This document shows positions 7,001-64,000 of a stretch of 64,000 bases of DNA, piece after piece. Position 1 is the first letter of the stretch, and each line of letters begins with the position of its first letter. Source of the DNA: Proteromonas lacertae (lineage: Eukaryota); NCBI GenBank assembly GCA_002245135.1, contig NGBS01000300.1, positions 124,001 to 188,000 on the forward strand. Reading direction: 5' to 3'. Made by a program: the position numbers and the translations under genes. Under the pieces are notes generated by a model. It did no database searches. It saw only the letters and a list, made by a program, of their open reading frames with translations, and was not told where the DNA came from.

Positions 7001-9042
7001 TTAAGACAGGAATATATGAAGTATCAAATGCAAAATATGATATTGGTAGTGAATTATCATGTTTAACATATGATGATAATGAAATATCAACTGGTTTAGT
7101 ATTAAAGAGTGAAGGTAGTAAATTATTAATGTCATTTGAAAAAGATAAAGATTTGAGTTTATTAAAATGTATGATGATTAATAAATATAATGATTTATCA
7201 AATTATGTGAAATGCGAAGTTAAAAAAGATGGTTCTTCTAATAGTTGTGCAACTAAAATAACTAATAATGCATTATATAATTTAGGATTTACTAATACTG
7301 GTTATTCATTCCAATGTGGTGAAAATGATAAAGTTAGTCAATCTTATACATTTACATTAAGTGGTATAGGAACTGATCCTACAACACCAACAGCAGTTAC
7401 AATTACACTCTCATCATCACCTCCAGATGCTGGTTCTGTTTGTCACTTACTTTATTCATTTACAGCTAAACCTATTCAGTTAGATACAAGTGATGTAAAA
7501 TCAACAAATTTCCTTTCTTTTTCAACAGGTGGGGTTTATACTTATTATGAAACAAAACCAAATACAAAACCACAACCAGTAGAAGATGATAAAATTGATA
7601 TAATAGGAGATGTTGGAGAAATTGGTGCAAATTTACAATGTAGAGATAAAGTGAGTAGTAAATTCTTAGGATTAGCCAATTTATTAGGAAAAGATGAAGA
7701 TGGCAAATATATAATGAAATATCTATTTGATATTCCTAAAGATGTTGATTCATTTGTCTGTGAAGTAAATGAAGTGATTAATGATTTATCATTAATAAAA
7801 AGTGAAATAATTACTACTGATGATTGTTCAGACAAATTATCATGTATGATAATAATAAGTGGAATATTGAATATATTAAAATCAAGTATATTTAAAAATA
7901 ATGAAGGAGTTAGAATGTTATTAGAAGATAATGAATATGAAGCAAGTTGTGTTGATCCTAAGAATAATAAAGTAACAGTGTATATAGTAAAGCCTGAAGT
8001 ATATATGAGTATAGAAGATGCAGTATTTTCATTATCTGAAAGTGATGAGAATGAAAAATCTCCAGTTGGAATGGAATGTCGATTATTAATATCTGCTGAT
8101 GGTAATAAACTTCCCTTAGAAGAAAGTCAATTTGGTAAAACATTATATTATGATGAAAAAGAAGGTGGTTTTTCAACCACACCATGTAATCCTAAAGATG
8201 GTAGTGAATTGTGTAATAACGAGGATGATGAAAGTACAGTAGTGATAACTGGTAATTTAATTGATGAAATTCTAGGTGAACAAAAGAAAACAGGAAGATT
8301 CTTTATTCCAATCAATACAGAAAATCGAACAATAATTGAAAATTATTTACAACCAGGAAAATGGATAAAAGTAGCCGAAACTTTAGCACAAATAATTAGT
8401 ATTGATTATAATTTAGTAGATGCACCAACACCATCAACTGATCCAAGAAGGCAATTGAGACAATTATCTGGTGATGTTAAAGGTTATTATGCTATACTAG
8501 ATAAAACAATTCAACTAAGTGGTAGTACTATTACAATTCAACTTAATGCAGCTGGTAGTAATAATTATGATCCTCATATTGCATTAGAATGTAGTGGACA
8601 AGGTGTATGTAATAGAGAAAGTGGATTATGTGAATGTTATGATGGTTATAGTGGAGATTCTTGTCAAAGATTAGATTGTCCAAATAACTGTAATGGAAAT
8701 GGTAGATGTGTTTCATTGAGTGAATTATTATCAAATGGTGATATAATAGGATATGGAGGATTTGGAAATAAACATGAAATAAAAGTTGGTAGTAGTACAA
8801 TAGTATCAGATGATGAAGTCTATGGTTGTTTATGTGATAAAAGACATCGTGGATATGATTGTAGTTTAATTGAATGTCCATCTGGTGAAGATCCAGAAGA
8901 AGCAACAAATAATAAGAATGATGATAAAAGTGAGTATAGAGATTGTAGTGGAAGAGGTATTTGTAATTACAATACAGGTGTTTGTGAATGTTTTGATGGA
9001 TTTAGTGGAGAAGGATGTCAAACTCAAGTTGCAATGATGTAA
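4072..9042 (+). CDS. Large secreted EGF-repeat protein, Sig1/Ocm1 mastigoneme- or tenascin-like, with a ~1400 aa repeat insert
   Basis: Signal peptide, then CPNNCSGHGTC..GADCSKR. GT-AG intron 4235-4264 joins in frame to the 1570 aa ORF. C-terminal ECSGQGVCNRESGLCEC, CPNNCNGNGRC, CPSGEDP and DCSGRGICNYNTGVCEC modules. Confidence 0.85.
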
Positions 9043-12666: not shown

Positions 12667-15600
12667 TTATATATTCAACTTCTTTGAACAATCACTACCT
12701 CCATATCCTCCAAAACATTTACATGTGCCTACACTATAATCACATATACCTCTACCACTACAATCTCGTTTCTCTTCACTACCACCATCTGGATCTTTCC
12801 CAGTTGGACATTCAACTAAACTACAATCAAATCCACGATATCCACTGGAACATTTACATCCATACACATAATCAGAAAATCCAAATGCATTATAAACAGC
12901 ATTATTTTCATCTATTATTTTCTTTACTAATACACATTCACCATTTCCATTACAATTATTTGGACAACTCATTTTAGCACAATTATTTCCACTATATCCA
13001 TCATAACATTCACATTCACCTGTCTTTCTATTACAATTACCTTGACCACTACATTCTACAAGAGGATGATAGTTATCATAAGATGAGGAAATTGGACCAG
13101 GTGAAAGATTTCCTATTTGTTTATCTGTTGTTATTGTATATTCTTCACTGTCTTGAAGAATTCTCTTATTCTCTGATAATAATCTTTGATTAGTTTTTGT
13201 ATTTTTAACTTCTATTATTTTAACTGAATTACCATCTCCATCTATTAATGATAATCCTTCTCTGAAATATTTGTTAAATACATCTTTAGCTTCTTCATAT
13301 ACTGTCAGATTGAATGAATTTCCATTTGCATTGTTTATGTAAAAAACCATTTTACCATCTTTTACAGTCATTATATTTTCTTTTACTTCTTCTCCATTTA
13401 TTAATACACAAATATTATCACTATTACATCTCACAATTTCAAATAATTCACTATTTTGAATTGATAATTTACTTCCATCAGTTTTCATTAATAAATATGG
13501 AGTTATTTTTTCTGAATTGTCTATTTTAGTATTTGTTGTAATGATTAATTTTAAATTCTCTCCAGCTAACATTCTTGATGAATTATCATTTAATAATCTT
13601 GCTCCTGCAGATTCTATTGTGTATGAAAATGTTCCTGTATATATTGTATTATCCTTATCATCAGGAGTTAGTATTTTTCTAAATGCAATATTTCCATTCT
13701 GTAATGGTTGTTTTACTCCCATATCAGTAAATAACTTTCCTAAACCTGCAATTGTAATAGCAGTACATGTATAAGGAGATTGACTTCCTGTACAAGTAAT
13801 GGATGATAATTGAACATTCTTTAATAACAATGATAAATCATTTTCTGTGGAAGTAACTTCACAAGATGATAATGATATTTCATTTTCAGTAATATCTTTT
13901 TTATCATATTCAATGAAATAACTTTTATCTGATTCCTGGTATGAATATATATTTCCATTGAATTTCTTTCCATTTACATCACTACATAATAATTTACCTC
14001 CATTTATTCCTATTCCTTCATACACAACATCGCTAACTTTAAAAATGTTTACATTTGTTATGCCTGTAAATTGTTCTGCTTTTGTTAATTTTAAAATACC
14101 ATTTCCTAAATCATTAACATAATAACCAATTTCACTATTTTGTATTGATAATTTATCTCCTTTAGAATTCATTAACAAATATGGAGTTATTGTAACTGAA
14201 TTTTCTATTTTTGTATTTGTTGTAATGATTAATTTTAAATTCTCTCCAGCTAACATTCTTGATGAATTATCATTTAATAATCTTGCTCCTGCAGATTCTA
14301 TTGTGTATGAAAATGTTCCTGTATATATTGTATTATCCTTATCATCAGGAGTTAGTATTTTTCTAAATGCAATATTTCCATTCTGTAATGGTTGTTTTAC
14401 TCCCATATCAGTAAATAACTTTCCTAAACCTGCAATTGTAATAGCAGTACATGTATAAGGAGATTGACTTCCTGTACAAGTAATGGATGATAATTGAACA
14501 TTCTTTAATAACAATGATAAATCATTTTCTGTGGAAGTAACTTCACAAGATGATAATGATATTTCATTTTCAGTAATATCTTTTTTATCATATTCAATGA
14601 AATAAACACCTGATTTATATGAATATATATTTCCATTGAATTTCTTTCCATTTACATCACTACATAATAATTTACCTCCATTTATTCCTATTCCTTCATA
14701 CACAACATCGCTAACTTTATACAAATTAACTTTTTCAGCATCACCAGTTGTAGTTACTTTCACTGCTTTTGTTAATTTAAAAGCACCATCAACATTATTT
14801 ACATAATTTCCAATTTCACTATTTTGTATTGATAATTTATCTCCTTTTGAATTTATTAATAAATATGGAGTTATTGTAACTGAATTTTCTATTTTTGTAT
14901 TTGTTGTAATTGTTAATTTCAAATCTCCAGCAGCTAATATTCTGGATGAATTATCATTTAATAATCTTGCTCCTGCAGATTCTATTGTGTATGTAAATGT
15001 TCCTGTATATATTGTATTATCTGTTGATGTTTTAAATGCAATATTTCCCTCAGTAGGTAATGGTTGTTTTATTCCCATATCAGTAAATAATGTTCCTAAA
15101 CCTGCAATTGTAGCAGTACATGTATAGGGAGATTTACTATCAACGTTACTACAACTAGTCAAACTAACTATAACATTTTTCAATAACAATGATAAATCAT
15201 TTCTCTTTGATATGACAATACAATCATATCCTTGCTCCAAACCTTTTTCCACATAAAAAGTATTAGCTGTTGTTGTATTACCATATACTATCAATTGAAG
15301 TACTTCTTTATTCTCTTTTTACATCTAATAACTCCACCAGATTTATCAAATCCTAAATCACCATCAAATGTTACTTTATTCAAAGTATATCCTCCTATTT
15401 CAACTGTTGTAGGTGTTTCTTTAACTTTTATTCCTGTTATTGCTAACATTCTCTTTTTTGGAACTTTTAATTCCATTATTAAATCAGTTGATTGATTTTC
15501 TTCTACTTCTAACTGTCGAGGTAATGGAGAACTACCTTCTGTTGTTGAAATCGAAAATGATTCACCAAGTGGACATTTTCCTATTTCACATTATTATACA

Positions 15601-27135: not shown

Positions 27136-27977
27136 TTAATAACCTATTGAAGCAGCTGATAAAGCTTTAAAGTCTCTAGAGGTAGTATCTGTTGTATCTT
27201 CTTCATCGTCTTCTGGATATATTCCATTTTCACTCTCCTTTATTATTCCACTATTTGCTATTCTGTGTTCAATCTCTCTTGTCTTTACTTCATATCCTTT
27301 ATCAAAATCTTCAAAACCAACTATTCTATCTATACTTATACCGTCTCTAAATATCACTACTGTTGGTAATGTTCTTACTGCTAGTTTTTGTACGAAAAAT
27401 GGACTTTTTTCTGCATTTAAATGTAAAAATTTGCATTCCATGTGATGTGGTGCAATTTTCTTCATGTGCATATCTAATATTTTACAACTCTCAAAATCAT
27501 CTTTATAAAATACAACCAAACAAACCTCACATTTTGTTACTTCGTTTAAAAATTCTGTTTCAAGTATTTCCCTGTATTCACCATAACCAGCTCGATGTAA
27601 CTCGTTTTGTTTTTTCAAGTCTCTAAGTCTAGCTTCTCGTAGTCTTTGAAATTCTGCATCATCATCGTCACTTAAGAAATCATCATCACTATCTTCATCC
27701 TCTATTATTAAGTATATTCATATAGCAATACCATTCTTTTTTGGTTCTTTATTTTCTATAGATATAGTAGGTAGAGGTGTAACTTCTTTTTTCGGTTTAT
27801 TCTTTGCTTTTTCTGATGGTTTTGGATCATTTTTGTGATTTTAATTAAGAAAATATGATAATAGTATTAATTTATAAAGGATATATGTTTTTCTACCAAA
27901 TCAGCCATCCCCTGCTGAATTCGCTCTTGTACAATTGCAGCTGTTTCTGCACCAAAGGTTCCTGATGAAAGAGGCAT
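27136..27977 (-). CDS. Phosducin-like / TXNDC9-like thioredoxin-fold protein
   Basis: GYGEYREI, CKILDMHM, NAEKSPFFVQKLAVRTLPT and DRIVGFE. Exon 1 (27977-27885) is 31 codons and is followed by an AT-AC intron. Confidence 0.9.
27835..27884 (-). other. U12-type (minor) AT-AC intron, canonical 5' site
   Basis: ATATCCTTT...TTTTCTTAAT-TAAAATCAC, 50 nt, phase 0. Removal gives ...VEKH|KNDPK in frame. Confidence 0.9.
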
Positions 27978-31606: not shown

Positions 31607-34600
31607 ATGAATTCGTCTGGTTTAGCTTCATCAGATGATGATGATCAACCACAAAGTGATCATGAAGATGCAGTAAAGGCTGTGTCAAAAGCAAGAGAAC
31701 AAGTATATTTCGTAAATCTATTACAAGGCTGCTAAATTAATGTCCAATGTTGAAGAAGCAACAACACTTAGTTCTAAAACAAATATCTTATTTTAATATA
31801 TCATATATTATTTGTTACTTTAACACTATTTACCTCAAGAACAGCTTAAGCTATTCCCTCAATTGGTGAGTAGAATTGGAGATTTAGAAGAACAAATCAA
31901 AATAAATGAAACACAAGGAATATCATTTTTTTAATATGAAATGAACAAGAATTTCTTTAATTAATATAAGATGACTTAAAAAGAACACGAACAGTCTTAT
32001 CAGAGGTAATTACATATGTTCCACTATTTGCAACTTTAGAAAATTATGCTAAGTTATTTTCAATATCATTTTTCATTTTGTTTATATTATTCTCTACTAT
32101 TTCTTTAATTCTATTGTTTTGTGTGTAAGTAGTATCATCTGTATTACCTAATTACATCCCCTGTGAATATGTAATACTCTATATATTTGAAAGGGATAAA
32201 ATCTGGACTGAATTTAGAGAAAATAGTGAAGATGATCAAGCAATTAGAAAAGAGTATCCCACTTCCAATCCACACGTTTCAGAGGTAATAATTGATAGAC
32301 AAGAAATAATGATATCTAATATAGAAGAAGAAGAACAATATCACTTAGAAGATGATATAGAATACCACTCTTTATTATCAAGAGCAATATGTAACGAATA
32401 TCTTTTTTGAAACAATTTTAATAAATGAAAAATATGTTTAGTTTTGTTTTAATGATGTTTAATGATAATCGTGCATTGGGTATGATAGAATGTATTAATC
32501 ACAATGATGAGCAGGAGTTTACAGCGGAAGATAGTTATACATTAAATCAATTCTCTACTTTGATAGCTGTAGCTATTGAAATGATTGATAAGAGTTTGAG
32601 AGTAAATGATGAAATAGAAATATCATTTTATATATATATATATATAATTTCATTATTTAATGTTTTCTTTAATATATATTTACGATTATAAGATAAGTGT
32701 AGAAAGAGAAAGATTATATAATTCATTCTATCCAAAGATTAGACCACTTGATCCAGTCAAACAATTGAATGAAATAGTCAATATATTAAACAACACAATC
32801 ACTTCCATTATTCAAGCCAAGTCAAGCCAATTATATATGTATACTGATAATGGTGAGAAACAAGGATTATTGACATTTGATTCAAATGAAATTATTCCAT
32901 TAACTGATGATCAATAAGTCTATTATATCATTTATATATTTATATATTTTAATTTTTATTAGAATATTCTTTAATTCTATATTTAAGCACTTAAATCCAA
33001 TGCTATTTCAATCAATAATAAGATTAACACCAAAGCAATCAAGAATATATTATGCGTACCAATAACAGTAGGTGATAAGAAAGATGAAGCATTTGGAGTG
33101 ATAGAAATATGTAATAAAAAGAACAATGAATTTAGTGATAAAGATGCTTTATTAATTCAACCAATTATATGTTTATTCTCACTCATATTAACATATTATG
33201 GTGAATATAATAACAATATTGATCATATTAATGAAATTACAATGGAATTATCAAGAGCTGAAGAAGCAAATAATGATTTACAACAACAACATATATCTTT
33301 TTTTTAAAACCTATTATTATTATTATCATTTATATTTTCTTTAATTTTTATTCTTTACTTTATGGTAGCTAATCTGATTGCAACATTACAAAAGTGTACA
33401 ATATATTCCAATGAAGAATCAATGTTGAATGAAATAATAAGATCACTTAATACTTATGTTAAATGTAAAGAAATTTCACTTTACATATACAACTCTGAAA
33501 CTGAACAATTATGTGGTTTATATCCAAATAAAGAAGAATTTCCATTAAGATATCTTTTTATTAAACATTTTATTATTATATTATTATCTTTAATATTAAT
33601 ATACTACTGGTATTATAGGCCAAGCATTTGAAACTCAAGAAGTACAATGCATTCAAGATCCAACTAAGAATCCAAATTACAATGAAGATATAGACTTAGA
33701 AATCAAACTCAATCAATTAAATATAACCTGTATTCCATTAATTAATAAACCAAATGAATCAATACCTCAGAATTGTTATGGTGTTTTAACCTTTCACAAT
33801 TGTACTCCATTATTAGCCAGTAATGAAATCACCAATATTCAATTAATATGCCAAATATTAACACCTTATTGGATATTACAACAAAGAATATTAGAGTTGA
33901 GATCTAAATATAAGATTAATGATGAAATTACAAGTCTTGCTGATGTTATTAAAGAAATGAATAATATTATCTTAAAAGAAAGAGATATTGAACGAAGTTT
34001 AACTGATATTGATATTACTGAAAACCCATCACTTTTACCTGATAGATTATCTGCAATTATTAAACCATATTTAGAGTGTGATTCTATGATTGTATTATCA
34101 TTAAGTGAACATGAAAATAACTTTACTATTATGTCAATGAGTATATAAATATATTCATATTCTTTGTTTATTATTAATAAATAGAACCACCTAAAACAAT
34201 GAGTTATTCTGAAGTTCCATCTGTTCCTATGATCTACAACAATAATAAAGATAACAATGAAATTGAAGTAATAAAACATAGTGAGAATCCATATGAAGAT
34301 ATTAACAATATTATACCATTAGCATTACAATCAAAATGGACTGTAATAATACCTTTGATTATGTCAACATTTATATACTTTGTAATATATACAAAACCAT
34401 TATCAGAAGAAGAAATTAGAATAAAGATGGAGAAAATCAATAGAATTAAACCATTCTTAGAGCAAAAGATAATGGATGTATATAAGACATTTGAATATGA
34501 AAATAGAGGTAGATTATTAGTTGATTATATTCATACAATGTTGACTTGTACAACTTATGAAGATATTAGTTCATTTACATTCGTATATATTATTATGGTA

Positions 34601-37600
34601 TTATTATTTTATGTATAGAATTATTTGAATAATATATATGTTCTTCCATTTTGTAATGTTTGGGTTGTTAGTAATGAAAATACTTCGATTACCTTTGTAT
34701 ATCTCTCATTATAAACATTATTTATATAGAATTCAACATTAACTCAACCAGCTGCAATCTCATTGGATAATGAACCATATTCATTATTACAACATCAAAG
34801 TGGCAATTATTATTATTTTGATGATATAAATCGTCATTATAATGTGGTAAAATCAGATGAAACAGGTGAATTAATTGGATTTATAGAATATGATATTAAT
34901 CAAGTAGCATTAGAAGATATTCAAGCAGAGTTTGAGAGACATATATCACCAATATTAATATATACAACTCAAATAGTAAGAAGCAATATGGCACTCTTAG
35001 AAAAGAAGGATGAGATAGATGAAAGAGAGAAAAGAATAGAAGAAATTAATGAAGAAAATGAAGAAAAAACAAAGGAATTACATGAATTAATCAACAATCA
35101 AAAGAATTCTTTAGATACAATAACAATGAATTATAACAATGTAATGGACGAAATAGAACAAAAGAATAAACAAATTGAAAACTTGGTGAATGATGTGAAT
35201 AAGCTGAATGAAGAATATAATGCATTGAATAATGAATATAATGAGTTAGTTCCTATTTCAATATTACCTGTTATATTTAACTTAACTCCTGAACAAGTGA
35301 ATGATCAGAATATACAAAATTCTTTACAGATTGTATCAAATGAATTGACTGGATTTGATAGTGTTCAATATTTTAGATATAATGAAGATGATAAATATTT
35401 GTATATTATTATTATTATTATTATTATTATAAATAGATATTTACCAAATAATGTATCATTACAAATACCTGTACAATCCAGAACAAAGCTATTCTCTGTA
35501 TTAAACAGTAAAGATTATTCAGTATTTAATGATATTACATATAATCGTAATTATCCATTACCAGTGAATTTATCAATATTGAGAGAACAGGCAAAATGTG
35601 TTATTGTTTCACCAATGTATTTATAATTATAGAATATATTATGAATAGTTATTATTCAGATTATATTCATGGTTTGTTGGTTATAGAATCTAGAAATAAC
35701 TTAACACAAACTCAATTAACAATATTCAAATGTTTGGTTCAACTATTAACCCAAGTAATAACAATGGAAATAGTAATGAGAGAAAACAATGAATATTACA
35801 ATAGAGATTTAACCAATAATAAATTAGAATATACTCATTTAACAAGTGCTATTAATTACTTAATTCAAAGTATTCTACCACCTTGTAATGTCAGTACATT
35901 GCTAATGAAAGAGAATAAGTATTTAGTGCAATATGAATGTGATGAAACAGGTAATGTTGAAGAAACATCGTATATATTATTTTTATTTTTAATATTAACC
36001 TTATAGATATGATTTAAACTCCATTATTCCATTAAAATATCAAACTATCTACGATAGAGTATTCTCTATACCAAATCCTATTGAATTTCCTATTAATAAC
36101 AATCAAGATAATGACTATAATAACAATGATGATGAAAATAGTATAGTTGGTTTATGCAGAGATCAGAATAGGAATATAATGGGAGTTATTATTATTGATT
36201 GTGTTGGATTACAAGGAAAGAAATATGGTATATTATATATATATATATATATAATTAAATAGAATATATCCAATCATTAGTCGATAAAACCTTAGATGAA
36301 ATAGGAGATAATATCAAAACAATGTACAAGAACAATAACAATTCAATTGCCTGTATATTCCAACTACAACAATTCTTCTCAACCTTAAAGAGAAGAACAG
36401 CTAATAATATTCTTACTGAAGAATTAAATCAATATATTAGTGAAGGTATAAGACATCGTGTAGATGTGGAGGATGAAGAGATTACAGTGAATAATGAGAA
36501 GATGACTAGAAGAGCATCAATAGTAAGAGGATTATTCGGTAGTCCAAAGAAAATACTTCCTAACAACAATAATGGTAGTAATACAATGAGTAGTGATTCT
36601 AATAATGAAATATCAATGGGTGGTTCAATACATAGTAATCCAGTCACAAATAATAATAATAATAGAAATGTAAATGAAATGAAGAAGAATAAATATTTGA
36701 ACTTTGATAAAAGATTTCAAATCAATAAATCCAAGAGGAATAGTAACCTTAGTAAATCTACAAATGGTACAGTTGGTAGTCCTTCAGATAGTAATTCAAT
36801 TGGAAATGATAGTTCATTACCAAGTTATCCAACTTTTACTACTACAGATACAGGTGACAATGAAGAAGATAATAATAATAATAATAATAATGGTCAAGGA
36901 ATGAATAAAGGATTGAATCTAAGAAAATATGATGAAATTAATAACAAAATGGAATCTTTAAAACATCAAATAAAAGAAAATGAAAAAGAAGTTCAATTAT
37001 GGAAGAAATATTATAATTTATGTGAAAGATTAATACAAATCAACTCATTAGATGATTTATTGAATAAAATATGTGGTATATTGATGGATACTTTTATCAC
37101 TGACTATTGTATGATATATAACATTAACACTACCACCAGAATCAATGATGACTATATCAATTCACTCTATTTACAATTCAAAAGAACACATGAAATTATC
37201 TATAAAGAAACAATCTCTCATAAATATAGAACAATGTCAATATTCCCAATTACTTTAAATAACAATAGAGAAGATGAATATGTTATTATAATGGGATGGT
37301 GTAATAATCCTATATTACATAATATTAATATTATTTATGATTATTTATCACAGTATGTTAATCATTTATCAATGTTGAAAGATATGAATATGTTATTAGA
37401 AGATCACAATATTGTATATATATTTTATATTTATATATATATATAATGTATTGGGTATAGAAAATTAAAGACATTGTTAGTGAATCAGAACAATTAAATA
37501 TGAATATGAAAGAAATGAAGAATAAATATAATGATCTCAATAATTATATCATCTCATTATTACAGAATGTCACTAATTTCAATGATTTATGCTATCAAAT

Positions 37601-40600
37601 ACATACAGAACTACCTGAATTGGTAGATATGAAGTTTGTTACTGTTTTTGTATTTAGTAATAATCAATTTGTTACATCAGTATATTATTATAATATTATA
37701 TATTTATAGTTGAATTCAAAAATATGGTCATTCTCTACTAATGAAGGATTAGTAGGCCAATGTCTCATTACATAAATCACATTTAAATATTCCCAATATC
37801 TTATATAGTTCATACTATAATCCAAATATTGATAATATTATGAATATTCCAATACAATCTATCTATATTACACCATTGTATATTAATTATTATTATGTCA
37901 ATAGAACTAATTATAATGGTGATATTATTGGATTATTAGAATGTGGAAATAACAAAGAAATCTCACAAAATGAAGAGAAGGTAATTAATGAATATATTCC
38001 AATATTATCATCAATATTTGAGATTTATAAGAATTATAAAGAATCCAATGATAAAACTACAAAAATAGAAAAATCAATGGAAGATATATCATTTTTTTAT
38101 TTTATATAATATATTTATTATATTTTTCTTAATTTAATGCTTACTTGAAAAGTGATGTTACTAACGGCTTATTAAGATGTTATGAAATGATCAGTCAATG
38201 TTATGATTATAATGAATTATTAATCAAAGTCAATTCAAAAGCATCATTATTATTAGGTTTAGAAAGTGTTACTTTATACTGTTTATTACCCGAAAAGCAG
38301 ATGTTATTAACACGTTATAAAGATACTGCAATACCATTAAATATCAATAAATTGAAAGGTATTATACAAATAGTATATAATAATGGTCAATCAATAATTA
38401 TACCAGAGTTGAAGAATGATATTAGGTTTGATAATCAGTTTGATATTATCTCAAACAGTTTGAATGTTCATAGTGTTATGTATTTACCATTATTTAAAGT
38501 AACAGGACAAATGGTTGGTATTATTATATTTGCCCATTCAAATCCATCATACTTTGATGGTAATATAGAGATATATAACAATCTATCAAATCATATTGCT
38601 TATTGTTTAGACAAATCTATTCAATTACATTATAATATTAAACATCTTAAAGAAAATGGAAGTGAAATAGAAAAGAAGAAAGAAGAGTTAATGAAATTGG
38701 AGAAAGAAATGAATGAATTGAAAATAAAGAAGAGTAATTCAAATACTCCTATAGATTTAAAGATGTTATCTAAATTACAATCAAATATATTATTATTAAA
38801 CAGTACAAGTAGTTTAATGAACTTAATATCAACCAAATTATTCATTGTATTAAAATGTGAAAAGAGTGAACTATACTTATGTGATAAAAACACAAAGTCA
38901 TTATGGACTATAAATAAAAGAAATGATAAAGTAATGAAGAGTTATGAAAGAGGATCATTTAAGTATATGATTTCAACTGGAAAATTAGAATTGTTTGATA
39001 ACTGTAGTGAAGATATTAGATGTGATAGAGATTATGATAATTGTAAGAATTTAATATGTTGTCCAATTAAAAGTGAAAATGGAAATATATTAGGGATAAT
39101 TCGTATAGAAAATAAAGAAAGTAACTTTGGTGAAAATGATATAAATATATTAATTTAGTGAGTAGTGAAATATCTATTGTTTTACAAAGGATTAGAAATT
39201 CTAAAGGCAGTCTAAGTATGGATAAAGGAAGTCATTTACAAGATATTGAAATACAGAAATTAGAAATCGAAAATAACAATAAATACTTGAAAGAATTGAA
39301 TGATTTTTATATCAATTTATTACCCATTCATTCCTTAAGTGATTTCTTTATTATTTGTGAAGATGAAATCAGTAAATTATTGAAATGTGAAAGTTGTAAT
39401 ATATTCTTATTGGAGAATAATGGAAGCGTTTTAAATGGTAAAAATGGATATATAACGATTGGTAATAGATTAATTCCAGAGTTAATAACATATAATAGAT
39501 TTATCATGAAAAATGACCATGAAGAATGTTTAGAATATTTATCAGATTTGAAATTATACTTCAATAATGTAGAAATGTACAGAAATTTCTTAATAGTTCC
39601 ATTATGTGATATGTATAATAAGATTAGTGTAATAATCTTTACAGTGAATAAAATAAAGAATAATTTCAGTGAAGATGATATGAAGGTAATTGGTGATATT
39701 AGTGAGAAATTATTATTGTTATTAGATAGAATTCAAATGTCAAATTTACATATTAATAGATATCTTTTTGCTAAACATTAATGATTATCATTTATATTTT
39801 TCTTAATATATATTTAAGCATATTGAATTAGAACTAAACGATGGAGAACAGAAGCAAAGAATGATGCAGCAGATTCTATCCCAAAAGAATGAAAATGAAA
39901 TAGAATTAAACCAACAACTAAAAATATTAGAAACTAAATATAAGAACTTAGAAAAACGACATGAAAAAGCAGTTACTTCAATGAAAAATGATTTAGATAG
40001 GCAGAGAAGTGATAAAAATGCAATTAAAGAGCTGAATATGGAGAGTCAAAGGATGATTGAACATAGCAAAAATGAAATTCAAAAACTGAAAGAGGAAGTA
40101 AAGAAAGAAGAACAAATGAAAGAACTGTTGATAGAAAAGAATGAAAGAGAAAAGAAAAGATTAGAAAATGACTATTTATTTAAAATTAATGAACTGAATA
40201 GAAATAAAGAGAGTTTATTGAAAGAGAAAATGAAATTAGAAAAAGAGAAAAAAGAATTGGAGATAGTTGTTGATGAAAATAATGAAAGATATAAAAGTTA
40301 TAATAAAAACTTGAAAGATGAAAATGAATATTTAAGAAATGAGTTGAATAGTAATGTTAATAAAAAGAATGATATTAGAAAGGAGAATGAAATGTATAAA
40401 GCAAAATTAGAGGAAGTAGAAAATGAGTTAAAAGATACAAAATTTAAATTGAACAACTTAGAAAGTGAATATACCGAAATGAAGAATAAACACGAAATAC
40501 AATTAGAGAATTTAATAGTATATATATAATATAATTATATTATAGAGTAAAAACGAAAAGAATTTGTTAAACTATAAAAATAGGTTAAATAGTTGCTATA

Positions 40601-40737
40601 ATAAACTGAAAAATGATTATAATATAATATGGAATGAAAAAAATAAAATGAAGATAGAGAGAGATGAAAATGAAGATGAGAAGAATCATTTAAAAACAAT
40701 TTTACACAAAATTAAAGAAGTAAATAGTAACAAATAA
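31607..40737 (+). CDS. Giant multi-GAF-domain, coiled-coil protein (~22 introns, 10 of them U12-type)
   Basis: After splicing it shows repeated GAF motifs (FPLSTGIIGQAFETQEVQCIQDP; HSLLSRAICNDDNRALGMIECIN; KNILCVPI..FGVIEICNK; KGIIQIVYNNGQSIIIPELKNDIRFD; NLICCPIKSENGNILGIIRIENK) and a C-terminal coiled coil. Three single-base frameshifts at ~32912, ~37773 and ~39155. Confidence 0.8.
31783..31833 (+). other. U12-type AT-AC intron
   Basis: ATATCTTA...TTACTTTAAC(31815-24)...TTAC, 51 nt, phase 1, contains an in-frame TAA. Confidence 0.85.
31920..31969 (+). other. U12-type intron, AT-AA (alternative AC end at 31975)
   Basis: ATATCATT...TTTCTTTAAT(31952-61)...ATAA|GAT, phase 0. An AG end would put the next exon out of frame. 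Confidence 0.75.
32063..32128 (+). other. U12-type AT-AA intron
   Basis: ATATCATT...TTTCTTTAAT(32100-09)...GTAA|GTA, phase 0. Joins AKLFS|VVSSVLPNYIPCE. Confidence 0.75.
32398..32462 (+). other. U12-type AT-AA intron
   Basis: ATATCTTT...TTTGTTTTAAT...TTTAA|T, phase 2. Restores the GAF motif RAICND|DNRALGMIECIN. The nearby GT-AG pair (32391/32441) is out of phase. Shorter AA ends (32429/32432) are also in frame. Confidence 0.7.
32620..32683 (+). other. U12-type AT-AC intron
   Basis: ATATCATT...TTTCTTTAAT(32664-73)...TTAC, phase 0. Joins ORFs 32425-32691 and 32660-32917. Confidence 0.88.
32925..32986 (+). other. U12-type intron, probably AT-AA
   Basis: ATATCATT...TTCTTTAAT(32967-75)...TTAA|GCA. 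Phase 0 only if one extra base near 32912 is an assembly error. Confidence 0.65.
33293..33358 (+). other. U12-type AT-AC intron
   Basis: ATATCTTT...TTTCTTTAAT(33336-45)...TTAC, phase 0. Joins QQQH|FMVANL. Confidence 0.88.
33550..33604 (+). other. U12-type AT-AC intron
   Basis: ATATCTTT...TATCTTTAAT(33585-94)...ATAC, phase 2. Restores the GAF motif FPLS|TGIIG. Confidence 0.92.
38086..38144 (+). other. U12-type AT-AC intron
   Basis: ATATCATT...TTTTCTTAAT(38124-33)...TTAC, phase 0. Joins ORFs 37840-38109 and 38145-39158. Confidence 0.88.
39760..39817 (+). other. U12-type AT-AA intron
   Basis: ATATCTTT...TTTTCTTAAT(39798-807)...TTAA|G, phase 2. Joins HINR|HIELE, in frame with ORF 39861. Confidence 0.8.
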
Positions 40738-44686: not shown

Positions 44687-44759
44687 TCCCATGTAGTCTA
44701 GGTGGTTAGGACGGCTGGCTTTCACCCAGCCGACCCGGGTTCGAGTCCCGGCATGGGAA
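44687..44759 (+). tRNA. tRNA-Glu (anticodon TTC)
   Basis: Acceptor stem TCCCATG/CATGGGA, anticodon arm GCTGG-CTTTCAC-CCAGC, T-loop GGTTCGAGTCC and a downstream T-run terminator. Confidence 0.97.
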
Positions 44760-53408: not shown

Positions 53409-55260
53409 TTAATAACCAAATGCACTTCTACCACAGCAACCAAATGCAGCACCTTCTGGTCTATCACCAGCTCCACCTCTCAATATTGGTAAATCTTTCA
53501 ACATTCTATAAGTGTGAATACCTCCTGACAGTAAATATGTATCATATCCTTTGTTCTTCAACAACATACACACATTATAAGCTCTAGCTCCTTCTCTACA
53601 CAACACATATATCTTCTCATTCTTAGGAATTTCATTTATTCTACTAAGAATATCACATTGTGGAATAACATGAGCATTGGGTATAAATCCTTCCATCTTT
53701 TCACCTGGATTTCTAACATCTAAAACATAATTCTCTTCAACTTTAGACTATAACAAAATAAAAATAAACATATTAATATATATACCCAATCAGCTAGTTT
53801 AACATCACCATTAATAACATTCGTAGCAATCATTCCTAACACATTCACTACATCTTTAGCACCACCATATTGAGGAGCATAGCACAACTCACTCTCCATT
53901 AAATCTTCCACTGTTCCTTTCATCTGCATTGTTGTTGATATTACATCTATTCTTCTTTCTATTCCTTCATCACCAATTCCACTACAACCCAATATCTTAC
54001 CATCATTTTGGAATAATAATTTCATATGACAAGGTTTACAGCCTGGATAGATATTCAACATGTTGTCCATTATGAATGTATATACAATTATATGGAATAT
54101 TCATCTTCTTACACATCTTTTCAGTTAATCCAGTATTAGCTACTGTCTTTTCAAATAAACCACAAACAGACGTTCCTTGTACTCCTCTAAATGGTCGATT
54201 TCTTCCCATTATATTATCAGCAATTACTCTAGCTTGTCTGTTAGCAGGTCCAGCTAATGGCAATATTGTATTTTTACCTGTAATTACATTCTTAACTTCA
54301 ACAGCATCACCACATGCATATATATTTGGATCAGATGTTCTCATAAATTCATCGACTTTAATTCCTTTATTTTCACCGATTTCTAAACCAGCTTCTACGG
54401 CTAATTGTATTCTAGGTTTTACACCTAATGCTAATATCACCAAATCACTTTTTATCTCTTTTCCACTCTTTGTTATAACGGATAAATTCTCTTTTGCAGT
54501 TGGATCATTTTTGTTATTTTGAACAATTTTAGATAAGCCATCACCTAATACTAAATTAACACCATTACTTCTTAAGGAATGCTGTAAGATTGAAGCCATT
54601 TCTATATCTATATTTGGCATAACTTGATCTAGCATTTCTACAATTGTTACATCTAAACCTCTTTTCTTTAAATTTTCTGCAACTTCTAAACCGATAAATC
54701 CACCACCAACTATTGTTGCTTTTTTGATATAATTGTTCCAAATCCATCCTCTTATCATTCTAGCATCTGGAATTGAACCACAACCAAATACTCCTGGTAG
54801 ATTGATTCCTTCAACTGGTGGTCTTACTGGTTCAGCTCCTGGTGATAATACTAATGCATCATACTTAGCTTTTTCAGTTGTGCCTTTTTTTAAGTCTTTA
54901 TATTCGATTTCTTTTTCTTTTCTGAAGATCTTTGTTACTTCACAACAAGATTTTATACCGATTTGGAATTTATGATCAAATGTTGTTGGATTAACTACTA
55001 ATAACTTCTTTTCATCTATTAAATTGTGAATTACAATGAATACTATTAATAACATTACCAATATAATAGGGTAAACCACAATTGGCAAATGCTACATAAG
55101 GCCCTTTTTCAAATATCGTTATTTCAGCATCTAGAAAAAATAACTGTGTATTATGAATACCACTGTTTAATCTTCTCAATCTAGCTGCTGTAGAGGCTCC
55201 ACCAGCGACTCCACCAACAACTAACACTCTCTTTGGTATATTTGATAAGTTCTTTAACAT
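53409..55260 (-). CDS. CoA-disulfide/persulfide reductase with C-terminal rhodanese domain (CoADR-RHD/Npsr-like)
   Basis: VVGGVAGGAS, AFANCGLPY (redox Cys), GGGFIGLE, IYACGD, YAPQY and rhodanese CREGARAY. Three short introns and one extra base near 54050. Confidence 0.9.
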
Positions 55261-56979: not shown

Positions 56980-57136
56980 ACAATCTACTTTTTTCTTCAT
57001 GTTTATCTTCTTGTCGTTTAGTTGTAGGCAATTTATTAAATAAGTATTTCATTTAATATTATATATTTCTATTTGCATTTTTATTTACAATTACGGTGAT
57101 TTTGAAATTTTTAAAAATTGATTCGTTACAGATTTT

Positions 57137-60100
57137 ATGTTATTTGTTTTGTGTATTTTTTTCATCATTTGCGCAGGAGATAGCGCAATTGAAGGGTTTG
57201 GATTTAATGCCCTAACTGTTATTAAGGATGTTGAAATACATACAACCAAACCACGTTTTAATAGTGACGTTATTGTGTTAAACTGTAACTCAACCAGCAT
57301 ATTCCCTACAGGATTAATTTTTAATACTAATAAATGTTCAATTGAAGGTGTACCGAAGGAAATCGTATTAAATCAAGAGGTTACAATTACATTTATAACC
57401 ACTGAGAAAATCTTTAACGAGACTATCAGTATTACAGTAATGAAAGAACAGCTTCAGCCAAAAATCTTGTATAAGACATATCATGCAAATCAAGAGTGTG
57501 GAAATAATATATTCAAAGATATGAGTATTGATTCATATCCAGATGCAGTTATAAAAACTGGATATGTAGATGAGTTATTCTTCGAGAAAGATTCTCCAGA
57601 ATGGTCAGATTTTGGTGTAGATACAGTGATTCAATTCTCAGGCTATATTCATTTAATAAGACCAGGTAAATACATATTCTATATAGACACAAATAATGAA
57701 TATAAGTTCATTTTAGACAATGTAAACGAAATTGAATCAACCAAATGTGAAAATTCCTATTATAACGTTAGTGTTAATGTAACTAGTAGTGCCTATGTTC
57801 CATTTGTTTTCTTTTATCATTACACATCTTCTTCTTTGCTGCCTAATTATTTGAAGGTAATATTTTCCAGTAACATTTATCCAAGAATGATCCCAACAGA
57901 TAGATTCTTTAATATTCCACAGTTTCCAAGATATTTATATTATCCAACTTTAAAGTTGAATTTGCTATTAAATAGACCAGTGAAATATGAACCGTATATA
58001 GAAAATACCATACCACCAGCAGAATATTCAATTGATAATCTATTACCAGAAGGATTATCATTATCTTTAGAAAGTGGAATAATATCGGGAACTCCAACTT
58101 CAAATAGTGATGTAAAACAATATACAATCAAAGCTACGAATAGATATGGTTCTACTAGTTATAGTTTTACATTACAAATAATGGATAATTTACCAAGTGG
58201 TTTATTGACAAAGTATTATGAAATACCAAGTTTAGAATGTGGAAATATCCCAAACATTGAAGATATTACCATTAATCCATCGATTATATTAGTTGAAGAT
58301 AATATTGACCATATTAATAATGATAATTTATATGAAAGATGGAATAATATTGCTTTATATGATAATTATTTGACTGTTTGGGAAGGTAGATTGACGTTTA
58401 CTACAGAAGGGAAATGGTTGATATTAATCAAAGCAGATGATGAAGCAGATGTATATATAAATAATGAATTAATTATCAGTAAAAGAGGGTGTGGCTCTTA
58501 TAACGAAGAATATTTATCATATGAATTGAATGTTGATAAATTGATGCTAGTTGTAGATATTAAAGTAGTATATATGCAATTAAATGGAGCACATGGTATT
58601 CAATTGTATTGGAGAAATAATGATTATGTTTTGACTGTTATTCCACCTTCTGCATTCTTATATTATCCTACTTATTCATTTGATTATCAATTTGAAAAAA
58701 TGATTTATAGATTTAATGAAACTATTCCAGATAATGTTCCTGTATTATTTGGTATAAAGAAAATATTTGAATTTCGCATTTCTCCTGATTTACCAAGAGG
58801 TCTAGAGATTGATAAAAAGAGTGGAGTTATAAGTGGTAAAACTACTGAAATTATTGATGCAAGACATTATACAATTGAGTGTGTTACTTCAACAATTACT
58901 ATATCTACTTCCATTATTATAACTATATTAGAAAATGAATTATCCTATTTCGCATTCCAAAATGATGAAGATGCAGTTATTACTGAATACAATACAACAG
59001 TTGGATTAGTAATACATCCAATAACAATAATTAAATACAATTCCATCAATTATTTTGACAGTCCAAATCTATTAACAGGATTATCTATTAATTCAATTAC
59101 TGGTACAATCAATGGAACAATTTTAGATTTAAAATATAATGAATATGACTTAACAGTATGTGCTCACAGTATAACTGGTGATAATTGTATGGAATTGCAT
59201 TTAAATATTGAAACATGTTCAAAGAATGGTTTTGTTTTCAGATTGAATAAGAATGAATTAGTTCCTAACAATACAATGTTATTAATCATTACTGGACCAG
59301 ATGGTTCAGAATTATTCCGTAAGAGTGAAGTTAATACTATTTATGATAATAATTACTTAATCTGTACAACAGCAAATGGTTTACACACTTTAGATATATC
59401 TAATCCAAAGAAAGGTAATTATGAATATAGTTTTGAATATTTGTCTGGTGAAATAATAGACAGTGGTGAAATTGAGGAAATATCCAACACTATATCATTT
59501 ACTATAGGTAAATCAGTATTATCTATTAGCTATTCAAAAGGTGAGATTGTATCTATGATTTATGAGTTTATTACAACAGAACCTGTAATATATGGACATT
59601 ATACTTCTATATCTATTGATAAAAGCTTGCCATTTGGTTTGACATTCCATTCAAATGGAACAATAAGTGGTATTCCTACTGTTGGTCAGCCTAGATTAGC
59701 TTATATTATCTCTATTTGTAACCAGTTAACTTGCGCTGTTACAAGAGTAACATTTACTATAAAAGGATGTGATAAAAGTACTGATAGTTTCTATTTCACT
59801 TATAATCAAATATCTGGACCAAAAGAGACTATTAAACTAGAACAATTAAGTAATAATGCTGTTTTATTCAATATATTAGATTCTACTAATTCATTTACTA
59901 AATCATTTTGTGCTGTAAGAGGTAATTATCAATTATCATTTTATACAACATCTATTTCAACTCCATCCTTATTTGCTATAAAAGATGATAAAGGTAATAT
60001 ACTGATGAATTATAAACATGAAAAAAGAAGTAATTCTCAATTACAATTCAGTACAATGTTTTTAATTGAAGCTAATTCTCATTGGAATTATATGTATATA

Positions 60101-63100
60101 TCAAATGATAATAGTAATGATGAGAATCTTCTTAGGAATTGGATGATTCAAGATTATGATGATTATTCATGGAATATTGGTAGAAGTACTGTTTATCCAG
60201 AAATATCAGCGAATGAAAAGAGTCAATATTATAGAAGAACCTTTGATAATAATAATAATAATCAAAATGGATTAGTGAGTATTGGTATTAAAATGAATTC
60301 CTGTTTTGTCGCATATATAAATGGATATAAAATACATAAATTGAATATTGATGATAGTGATTTGGAATTATGATACAGAATGTGATACAGATTCATATAA
60401 TTCAAATACTGATTATATAATCTTCTCAATTCCTTCATCGTATTTAATGAAAGGTAAAAATACAATAGCAGTTGAAATTCATCAATCACCAAATCCAATA
60501 AATTCTGTCAATATATTTGATTTACATATGTCTTTATTAATAGGAGATAATATATTAAGATCAAGCATTTTTACAATTGATTCATCAGTTGCTCAATCAA
60601 ATGATAAAGATGATCCTTCTATTTTAATTAATGATGAATTTAGCAGTGTTTATTATACAACAGAAGCAGAACCAAAGTTTTGTCTGTATAGACCAGATAA
60701 ACAGTATGAGACAATTAATCAATATGTCATTTATACAGGAACTGGATATCCAGATTCAGTACCAACAGCATGGAAGTTGTATGGTACAAATAAAGATACA
60801 GCCGATTGTGTAATAACATGGAATGAAGATGATTGGATATTATTAGATGAAAAGAATAGTGAGACATTAGCTGAATCAAAGGAATATAAATATGAAATTA
60901 GTAATATTAAACCATATTTAAAATATGCATTTGTATTTACAACTACAAGTGGAAGTGTGGATGGTGTTAGTCTTTCTTATATTCAATTATATACAAAATA
61001 TAGAGATATTAGTGATGAATATTGTATTGAAAATGGATGGGGTCTATGTCATAGAAATGAATATTGTCAAGGTAAATGTCCTGTTAGTTATGATGGTTAT
61101 ACATTAAGAAAATGTGAAGTTGATTTAACATCTGTATCTTTAACAGGAAGTGATTTAACAAAGTGTATTCCACCTGGTCCAATTACCTTCAAATACAGTA
61201 AAAGTGAATATACATTTGCCATTGATGATGAAATTGAACCAATTATACCTGAATATAATGTAATTGAGAAAGGAATATTCACAATAACACCTGATATTAC
61301 TCAAATTGGATTAGCATTTGATGAAAATACTGGAAGAATAACAGGAAAATCAAATACTCCATCAATTGATACATATACAATCATTTATAGTAATGTAGGT
61401 GGTAGTTTAGTGAATTATATCACTATTATTATTGATGAAACTACTAAGTGTAATCCTCCAAGTAATGATTTATCTTGGGGTTATGCTAAACCTAATACTT
61501 ATGCTTTTATTCCATGTTCTGAAGGTTATTCTGGTAATTTGACAAGGTATTGTGATGATTCTAATCCTCCTAAATATGGAGAGATTGTTTCTAATTGTAT
61601 TACAGATAAACCACAATCATTCTCCTATATTAAATCAAGTTTTGTATTATTTAAAGGAGTTTATACAGATTCTATTGTTCCGCAGTATGTAGGAGCAAAT
61701 ATAAAGTTTGAAAAAGTTACTGCATTACCTCAAGGTTTGTCAATTAATGAAAAAACTGGAATTATATCAGGAACACCAAAAGATTTATCTACTTCTAAGA
61801 CATATAGAATAAAAATGTCTAACTGATGGTGGATTTTTAGAAACAGATATTAGTATAGAAATTAAAGATAAACCAAAGTTTAAATATGAGAAGAAAGATT
61901 TCTTCCTTAAAATAAATACAGCTGGAACATATACAGTAACAAAAGAAAGTCAATTTGATTCAACATTCGATATTAGTGATGATTTGCCTCATGGAATTGA
62001 ATTTGATAAAGCAAATGGACAATTTACTATTTCTGCTCAATCAAAATCATTGTATTTCGGTACAACTGTTTCATCAAGTGTATATGGATATACAGCAACC
62101 TTTTATATAGCATTTCATAGTATAATTTATAATAATTTATTAATATTTATTATAAAATAGTTGTTGATACTTTAGATGAAAATGATTATGATGTAGATGA
62201 GATTGTTTTTGTAGCTAATTCACAGTATAATTTAGATTATCCATTGAAATATCCATTCTATGTAAGTGAATGTCAAGTTACTCCATCATTACCATATGGA
62301 TTTACATTAAGTGATGAATGTACAATAGGTGGAAATCCAAGTGTAATACAAGGAACAACAGTATATACAGTTATTATGAATAATCCATTTGAAATAAAGA
62401 CAGTCAAAATCAAATTAAGTGTAGTAGAAGATATAAAGAATTATAAATGTATTTTTTTATTGTAGTTTATATATATCTATAGCAAAAGTTGGAACATTCA
62501 GATATAGAGTATTTAACAATCCCAATTTAGGATGTAATTTTGCAATTAAAGATTATAATCATGGTCCATTTAGTTCTCAACAATTTCCATCAGTAATTAA
62601 CCATGCAAAATCATTAGGTGGAGCTGCAAGCAATTATTATGAGTATATTGAATTTCTACTAACAGTTGATACTTCTTATGATTTATGGTCATTTTATATA
62701 GAAGGTGATAATAGTGTTGGAATAAAAATAGATGAAGATGATTTCAAAACAGAGAGTGTATGTCAAGAAGAAGTAGAATTGGAAGTTCAAAAAAGACTGT
62801 TCAAAGGAACTCATCATATTTATGTACATCATTATCGTAATTCTTATTCTGGAACTAAGTTATTATCTTTATATTATTCAAATAGTAAAACAAAGAAGAC
62901 TTTATTAAAAGGTGATTTCATCTATCCACAGATTACAGCATATGATATTAAATATACTAAAGATTCATTCTCATCTTATGTAGAAACAAAATTCAATTTC
63001 AATTCATTGAATTACTTTGTAGATCCAACGTATACTATTTCACCAGTCTTACCAGATGGTATAACGATGTCAAGTAGTACAGGAACAATGACAGGTGTTC

Positions 63101-64000
63101 CGACAGTATTTACAGATGCTATTGATTATACAATTCGAGTACAGAGTTATTTCTTGATAAGTAAAAAGATAGTTACAATTGAAATTCTTAGACATTTACC
63201 ATTTGTTATGAGAAAACAATTCTTTTTGATTAAAGACCCAAATAAACAGTTTGTTTATGATCCTGTAGAATATCCTAAACCAATTGCTCAAGATTTCTCC
63301 TATGATTATAATTTCTCATTCCCTTATGCTGAGCAAGGTGCAGATGGTTATCCAGTTGAAATGAATCAAGCTTTAGGAGTCCATATTTCATCTGTTATTC
63401 ATATTAATAAAGGAGGAGTTCGATGGAGTTTTGAATTTTGGGTATTTATATTTATATTTATATTTTTGTTTTATGTTTAGACTACTGGAGGTTTTAATGT
63501 GTATGTATTAGGTGCAAACTATTTTCGTGGACAATTAGGAAATCCAGCAGTTCAACATATCACAGGATTCTTTTTCACAATCCAGAATAATAGAGAAGAT
63601 TGTATCATTATTGTATTTATTCTGTAATAGTGTATTTTGATTATACATTTGATATAACTATGCCAGCTGGTTATAAGTACTTTAAATATACAATATCACT
63701 AGTTACTACCAGTAATATTTTTATTAGTGCAGTAACTGACAGAGTCTATGGTGATATTGGAGGAGAAATGACTTATAGAAGAAATCCAGCTACTTATCCA
63801 ATGAATACTTTAATCAAACGAAATACACTTGTTTATAAGAAAACTCCTCCATATAATTGTAGTTTAACACCTGATTCACCACATTTACCTACTGGTTTAA
63901 CAATATCTCCAATTAATGGCGATTTATATGGTACTCCTACAGAAACAAAAGCAGAAGATGATTATACAGTTTTGTGTTATTCAAAAACTGGTCCTGTAGA
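57137..64000 (+). CDS. Giant secreted PA14 + He_PIG (putative Ig) repeat surface protein, 3' incomplete
   Basis: Signal peptide, repeated LP.GL.....G.ISGTP motifs, PA14-like segments (WEGRLTFTTEGKWLILIKADDEADVYIN) and a discoidin-like PTAWKLYG. Frameshifts near 60360 and 61824, introns after 62119. Confidence 0.8.

Follow-up and report, generated by a model that had tools for sequence, protein, structure and literature searches.

The analyzed sequence was a stretch of Proteromonas lacertae DNA of 64,000 nucleotides (nt) (assembly GCA_002245135.1, contig NGBS01000300.1, positions 124,001 to 188,000 of the forward strand; hereafter, the window), which is AT-rich (guanine + cytosine (GC) content 23–30%), uses the standard genetic code and contains short GTAT...TAG introns. 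A multi-GAF/coiled-coil gene was modelled at 31607..40737 (+, 9.1 kb) with 23 exons and 22 introns, the latter comprising twelve GT-AG introns and ten AT-starting introns of the minor-spliceosome (U12) type, designated I1 to I10; the identity of these ten segments and their accumulation within a single gene are considered here. Removal of the 22 introns gave a stop-free product of 2707 amino acids, with three X residues at 1-nt frameshifts; the last exon (40546–40737) was placed on the basis of frame only. Seven GAF repeats, five whole and two split, were recognized in the product using a profile derived from 29 repeats found in other proteins, the first of them spanning I3 and I4 and being gap-free at both junctions. 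Pfam GAF matches were obtained in four exon pieces, above the cut-off in one, and the ESM Atlas features agreed with the membership of the product among GAF-domain proteins. The product shares tandem GAF repeats and helical linkers with GAF-domain sensor proteins (Pfam PF01590, PF13185) and differs from them in having seven repeats together with coiled coils, no catalytic domain found in the gene model, and no named ortholog.

The GT-AG introns of the gene, all on the plus strand, are the first intron (31703..31727, 25 nt, phase 0), a block of ten located at 34141..37904 (27–47 nt, GTAT donors) and the last intron (40518..40545, 28 nt). One intron of the block (37878–37904, +) is 27 nt long, in frame and without stops; since relatives of the gene differ in length at this position, it was considered a true intron that callers of open reading frames (ORFs) read through. 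In the gene model, introns 2–9 are all minor-type and consecutive and are followed by the ten GT-AG introns of the block, which agrees with the preliminary description of the locus.

The ten minor-type introns, likewise on the plus strand, were delimited as follows. Intron I1 (31783..31833, 51 nt, phase 1) is AT-AC and has the branch motif TACTTTAAC 11 nt from its end; it could also end in frame at an AG (57 nt) or at a further AC (60 nt). The end of I2 (31920..31975, phase 0) is ambiguous, with candidates AC at 31975 (56 nt), AA at 31969 (50 nt) and AT at 31972. Intron I3 (32063..32128, 66 nt, phase 0) is predicted to be AT-AA, with the branch motif 21 nt from the end; the end chosen was the shortest stop-free in-phase one and gave the best GAF score. 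Intron I4 (32398..32462, 65 nt, phase 2), also predicted AT-AA, carries G in place of C in its branch motif, and its 65-nt AA end had the best GAF score of the 20 in-phase ends tried. These are followed by I5 (32620..32683, 64 nt, phase 0, AT-AC), I6 (32925..32986, 62 nt, phase 0, predicted AT-AA, 3′ end assigned by frame only), I7 (33293..33358, 66 nt, phase 0, AT-AC) and I8 (33550..33604, 55 nt, phase 2, AT-AC). For I8, the 55-nt AC end (48.5 bits against the GAF profile) was the best among the AC, AA, AG and AT ends; a 49-nt alternative scored higher (50.9 bits), but its terminus is TA, located 6 nt past the branch A. Downstream lie I9 (38086..38144, 59 nt, phase 0, AT-AC) and I10 (39760..39817, 58 nt, phase 2, predicted AT-AA). 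Thus, five introns are AT-AC, four are predicted to be AT-AA (I3, I4, I6 and I10) and one is ambiguous (I2), while six are in phase 0, one in phase 1 and three in phase 2. AT-AA is reported as the commonest non-canonical terminus among the minor introns of animals and plants, although non-canonical termini of all kinds make up about 4% there (PMC10639083). An origin of the AA ends in three separately lost G bases, formally possible for I3, I6 and I10, is unlikely given the rate of about six indels observed over the 64 kb.

The preliminary description had ascribed to each segment an ATATC(A/T)T start, a U12-like branch site near the end and a length above that of the GT-AG introns of the gene, and these observations were reproduced. 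All ten segments begin with ATATC-x-T at the above coordinates, position +6 being T in five, A in five and never C; T(A)CTT(T)AA(T/C) is found near the end of nine of them, and the segment at 32398 has the G variant; the lengths are 51–66 nt versus 25–47 nt for GT-AG introns (ten versus twelve introns, Mann–Whitney p = 9e-5). The extended U12-type 5′ splice site, [AG]TATCCTT, was accordingly found with a deviation at +6, together with the extended branch motif (TTCCTT[AG]AC type), whose C-to-T substitutions would pair with canonical U12 as G-U wobbles. Taken as a class, the GT-AG introns of the gene have neither the +5 C nor the extended branch motif. The joint 5′ splice site and branch pattern occurs nine times on the plus strand of 31.5–40.5 kb and not at all on the minus strand, while the chance expectation was 0.105 on average with a maximum of 1 (200 block shuffles). 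The distances from the second branch A to the intron end, from I1 to I10, are 11, 16, 21, 11, 12, 13, 15, 12, 13 and 12 nt, i.e., 11–16 nt in nine of ten and 21 nt in one, with seven of ten falling within 11–13 nt, the optimum branch-to-3′ distance according to PMC3584512.

Two further statements in the preliminary description held in part. The statement that no in-phase GT-AG pair was found at the breaks was correct for six of the ten, while such pairs do occur at the other four (31783, 31920, 32620 and 33550); none of them has the gene's GTAT donor, and their use would change the product by −33 to +69 nt, and the 31-nt GT-AG alternative at I5 is also contradicted by frame variation in relatives. 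Removal of the segments does restore GAF motifs across junctions such as FPLS/TGIIG at I8, but three 1-nt frameshifts (near 32912, 37765 and 39150), overlooked in that description, keep the frame from being restored by intron removal alone. The description also made no mention of the four predicted AA ends.

Relatives of the gene were unspliced ORFs from Logan contigs, found by searches with exon references and having exons 90–97% identical to those of the window; many are strain variants and thus not independent lineages. These relatives read into or through six of the ten minor introns and keep the motifs there. The 5′ motif was present in all relatives reaching the site for I5 (16/16), I6 (3/3), I7 (8/8), I9 (3/3) and I10 (15/15), and the branch motif was present in most relatives, in all three frames. 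At I5, all 16 relatives keep both motifs and 13 give an AC end at 56–59 nt, with lengths of 56 nt in six proteins, 57 nt in three, 58 nt in three and 59 nt in one (three undecodable), versus 64 nt in the window. AC ends were likewise read at 49–55 nt in five of eight relatives at I7 (66 nt in the window) and at 55 and 64 nt in two of three relatives at I9 (59 nt in the window). Three relatives fix phase 0 for I6, two of them with the branch motif. The phase of I10 is kept in 15 of 15 relatives, and in 13 of these a stop codon lies 9 nt past the branch motif, which indicates an AA or AG end rather than AC. At the I4 site, four relatives have AC where the window has AA, plus a branch motif of canonical type. 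Since the motifs are kept while intron length varies in all frames, the segments behave as spliced introns under selection. Consequently, the ten segments are almost certainly real introns, their U12-type identity is well supported by the motif statistics together with the retention of both motifs in relatives, and their removal by the minor spliceosome is predicted with high confidence from these signals.

The minor introns are strongly concentrated in this gene. They account for 10 of its 22 introns, versus 1 in 60 for the remainder of the window (Fisher p = 2.8e-6), a comparison that covers 64 kb only and a gene chosen because it stood out; the run of eight has p = 0.002 (permutation), and 10 of 22 corresponds to p = 6e-15 at a background share of 1% and to 1e-4 at 12%. 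The outside count comprised 59 major-type introns from a strict census, whose filter identified nine of the gene's own twelve GT-AG introns with exact boundaries and a tenth with an incorrect donor, and a single minor intron from a relaxed frame-aware scan. The latter is a 50-nt AT-AC intron (27835..27884, −) of a TXNDC9/phosducin-like gene (27977–27136), with the donor ATATCCTT and the branch motif TTCTTAAT; its motifs are canonical, including the +6 C, which points to the presence of a minor splicing system in the genome. Motif matches at −51158, −7043, −6920, −1399 and −40375 were discarded because they fail the frame-aware test or are antisense to a gene. An Rfam scan of the 64 kb gave a single match, a transfer RNA gene (44687–44759, +), and is uninformative on minor small nuclear RNAs (snRNAs) elsewhere in the genome. 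U12-type introns are typically rare and ancient, usually one per gene and biased against phase 0, whereas here ten of 22 introns in one gene are of this type and six of the ten are in phase 0.

As to the origin of the cluster, local gain of minor introns in this gene, with copying preferred over independent de novo gain, is likely. Four minor introns lie within GAF repeats, at alignment columns 22, 139, 95 and 88, and the repeats that bear them are 11–22% identical to each other (the map used here was made with a profile that included the repeats themselves, and only columns and identities were taken from it); the different columns and the low identity rule out spread of the introns by duplication of GAF repeats. 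An introner or transposon origin was rejected, as the direct repeats (0–1 nt) and inverted repeats (2–4 nt) at the intron ends amount to no target-site or terminal repeats and the introns lack mutual similarity; the interiors of orthologous introns have already diverged, so marks of an old transposon could have been erased. The lack of a position common to the GAF repeats and of transposon marks favours serial local gain. Old minor introns are reported to be in phase 0 in 22% of cases, and those of Blastocystis ST1, for which recent gain was proposed, in 49% (PMC10639083). The six of ten in phase 0 are unlike old minor introns and were counted for local gain. Thus, the clustering proposed in the preliminary description was confirmed, whereas locally clustered gain is favoured by inference only. 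On balance, the ten introns may be regarded, with somewhat better than even confidence, as minor introns removed by the minor spliceosome and gathered by repeated lineage-specific gain within one gene.

By analogy with established U12 biology, the donor ATATC(A/T)T would be bound by U11/U12 jointly with the branch site TTCT(T)TAAT, and the 3′ end would be set mainly by the distance from the branch A, which would allow AA to replace AC, as at I4 between the window and the relatives. The least certain step is that the cluster would have grown by a self-reinforcing local process. In the preferred route, an excised minor intron would re-enter its own messenger RNA (mRNA) at a new site and become fixed through complementary DNA; such transposition would copy both rare motifs at once, within the gene and without target-site duplication, and it would best account for the recurrence of this rare pair of motifs within a single gene. 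The re-entry of an excised intron into its own mRNA is a route presented in PMC3443670, which regards the step as unproven. Since the minor spliceosome would have to act ten times to yield one full-length mRNA, the output of the gene is predicted to depend unusually strongly on the activity of this machinery. It is proposed only tentatively that the lineage possesses a gene-local engine in which excised U12-type introns re-insert in their own transcript and thereby produce single genes bearing ten or more minor introns, and that its minor spliceosome has become relaxed enough for +6 A donors and AT-AA ends to be read routinely.

Among other explanations, the strongest is that the segments are real U12-type introns, each gained de novo from an AT-rich insertion such as one left by break repair. 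At 25% GC, relaxed motifs of high AT content form readily, the major donor GTAT differs little from the minor one here, and sites may be spliced more efficiently when another minor intron is nearby, which would produce clustering without copying; the motifs resemble an AT-shifted consensus, and the interiors are of low complexity, unrelated and free of transposon marks. Nevertheless, this origin is unlikely, as the joint motif is rare by chance even in this sequence (0.105 per 9-kb strand) and neighbouring genes of the same base content have one minor intron in about 60.

A different possibility is that the gene was rich in minor introns from early on and that selection kept them here as a throttle on a sensor protein, while minor introns elsewhere in the genome disappeared or were converted. 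AT-AC introns convert poorly, and the introns predate the split of the 90–97% identical relatives. Minor introns are reported to cluster non-randomly in all 21 genomes tested (PMC7367187). Such retention is nonetheless quite improbable, given the excess of phase 0, the maximum of three minor introns per gene in human and mouse (PMC6717393) and the narrow distribution of the gene, whose farthest ortholog lineage is 58–60% identical, with the next matches at 23%. In this lineage (the P0042 cluster), the ORF ends in an apparent GT intron within an exon that is unbroken in the window (38145–39759), which indicates intron turnover in the same gene and also speaks against retention. No longer homologs of the largest exon were found, and a metagenome scan with a window exon found no relative; two loci from a scan with P0042 gave no tblastn match to the gene model and were dropped as chance. 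Two weakly matching contigs (L001 and L002) are AT-rich, intron-poor and unrelated to the gene, and their ORFs resemble those of a large DNA virus by eye.

Splicing of real introns through an altered major spliceosome or some other non-canonical pathway, without minor snRNAs, would fit the deviation of the donors at +6 and the four predicted AA ends; a U2-spliced AT-AC subclass exists, judging from a title cited in PMC3584512. Meanwhile, relatives preserve the +5 C as well as an extended branch motif at the distance expected for U12, the GT-AG introns of the gene lack these signals, and no fold was shared across 11 introns, of which one folded better than shuffles (z = −3.1; the others −1.3 to +1.0), so that this route was rated very improbable. 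In structure-defined non-conventional introns of the euglenid type, stable pairing joins both ends; the lack of a shared fold in the 11 introns led to their rejection as well.

The three 1-nt frameshifts of the gene lie at 32910..32914 (+; absent in 3 relatives), 37756..37772 (+; outside the coverage of relatives) and 39140..39158 (+; absent in the 15 relatives spanning the site). Among 22 junctions between neighbouring long ORFs, a coarse scan revealed three more intron-less frameshifts in two other genes, located near 54060 (−), 60360 (+) and 61822 (+) in the CoA-disulfide-reductase-like and He_PIG genes; scattered one-base indels thus seem to be present in the assembly. As relatives read through two of the breaks and other genes are also frameshifted, the three frameshifts are probably assembly errors, though their density, three in 9 kb, exceeds that elsewhere in the window and may reflect a dead allele in this strain. 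A decaying pseudogene or an assembly artefact with unspliced breaks, for which these frameshifts and the lack of any RNA seen would speak, is the least probable explanation of all, because relatives have intact and highly conserved exons across two of the three breaks, the frameshifts in the two other genes point to assembly error, and intact relatives conserve the set of introns whether or not this copy is dead.

Repeated lineage-specific gain of minor introns within this gene has to be weighed against several observations. Every relative covering a junction is unspliced, and no spliced transcript was seen; the relatives also retain a GT-AG intron and therefore look genomic. Introns I1, I2, I3 and I8 lie outside the coverage of relatives, so that the comparative support covers six introns, and the boundaries in the relatives were read from translated sequences instead of at the DNA level. 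Reading frame is the basis for the 3′ ends assigned to I2, I3 and I6. None of the ten donors has the canonical C at +6, A taking its place in five, and the window copy carries the three frameshifts. The intron interiors resemble each other no more than shuffled sequences do (17.1 versus 16.3, standard deviation 0.6) and give no direct trace of transposition, and reverse splicing into new sites had not yet been shown according to a 2012 review (PMC3443670). Finally, the homolog searches found no outgroup ortholog that would polarise gain versus loss.

The closest published pattern is that of Blastocystis sp. ST1, in which 346 minor introns in 319 genes and all four minor snRNAs were reported (Gentekaki 2017, PMC5608401). 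Both systems have short, mostly AT-starting minor introns (77% AT-AC in ST1), an abundance of phase 0 and short major introns; unlike ST1, with at most 27 minor introns beyond one per gene, the P. lacertae gene has ten, four of them predicted to be AT-AA. The preliminary description had named Physarum as an example of large expansions and omitted Blastocystis ST1, with its hundreds of mostly AT-AC, phase-0-rich minor introns. The GC content and intron style of the window are likewise similar to those of Blastocystis. A tree of one gene (TXNDC9), in which no sequence was labelled Blastocystis, left the window protein on a long branch and did not place the organism; sequence searches gave no close relative with a name, and the literature yielded nothing usable on Ig-like or cadherin-like expansions as a marker of Blastocystis. 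In Physarum polycephalum, 20,899 of 175,198 classified introns are minor (bioRxiv 10.1101/2020.10.12.336362). Minor introns gained in young genes (a probable gain in P. lacertae), +6 T donors and many non-canonical ends (AT-AA accounting for 27% of those in Physarum) are common to both, while the Physarum expansion is genome-wide, consists mainly of GT-AG introns with the branch motif TTTGA, and bears transposon marks in the form of inverted repeats. In P. lacertae, by contrast, the excess is in one gene of the window, all ten introns start with AT, the branch motif is near-canonical and no repeats were found. Some Physarum genes probably match or exceed ten minor introns. Ciliates are reported to have no minor snRNAs (PMC13685798).

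In human and mouse, 50 genes with two and three genes with three minor introns were reported, three being the maximum (Olthof 2019, PMC6717393). Minor introns likewise cluster in genes there beyond chance (Moyer 2020, PMC7367187), a tendency described in that work as unexplained; they differ from those of the present gene in this low maximum, in being 72% GT-AG and in their ancient positions. A survey of more than 3000 genomes is reported to have found very little evidence of de novo minor-intron creation outside Physarum (Larue and Roy 2023, PMC10639083), and literature searches, supplementary intron tables aside, brought up no gene beyond the Physarum expansion with a comparable number of minor introns. 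Serial gain at this locus, if true, would give a direct way to study the origin of minor introns; should the tentatively proposed local engine exist, the gene would be the densest known minor-intron cluster outside Physarum and the first natural record of within-gene multiplication. Being young, with ten minor introns whose positions are unrelated and neighbours nearly free of them, the gene offers a single locus, with many natural strains, to test gain, clustering and throttling. It also provides natural AT-AC/AT-AA pairs at one site. Gene callers that allow only GT-AG introns will shatter such genes.

Elsewhere in the window, a bacterial-type CoA-disulfide reductase/NADH oxidase-like gene with spliceosomal introns was found at 53409–55091 (−; best PDB match E = 1e-76) and may have been acquired from bacteria. 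Large surface-type proteins are encoded at 57122–63480 (+), 4261–9042 (+) and 12667–15318 (−) and comprise He_PIG repeats with PA14 and two EGF/teneurin-like proteins. An internal duplication of about 680 nt was detected near 13878 and 14562.

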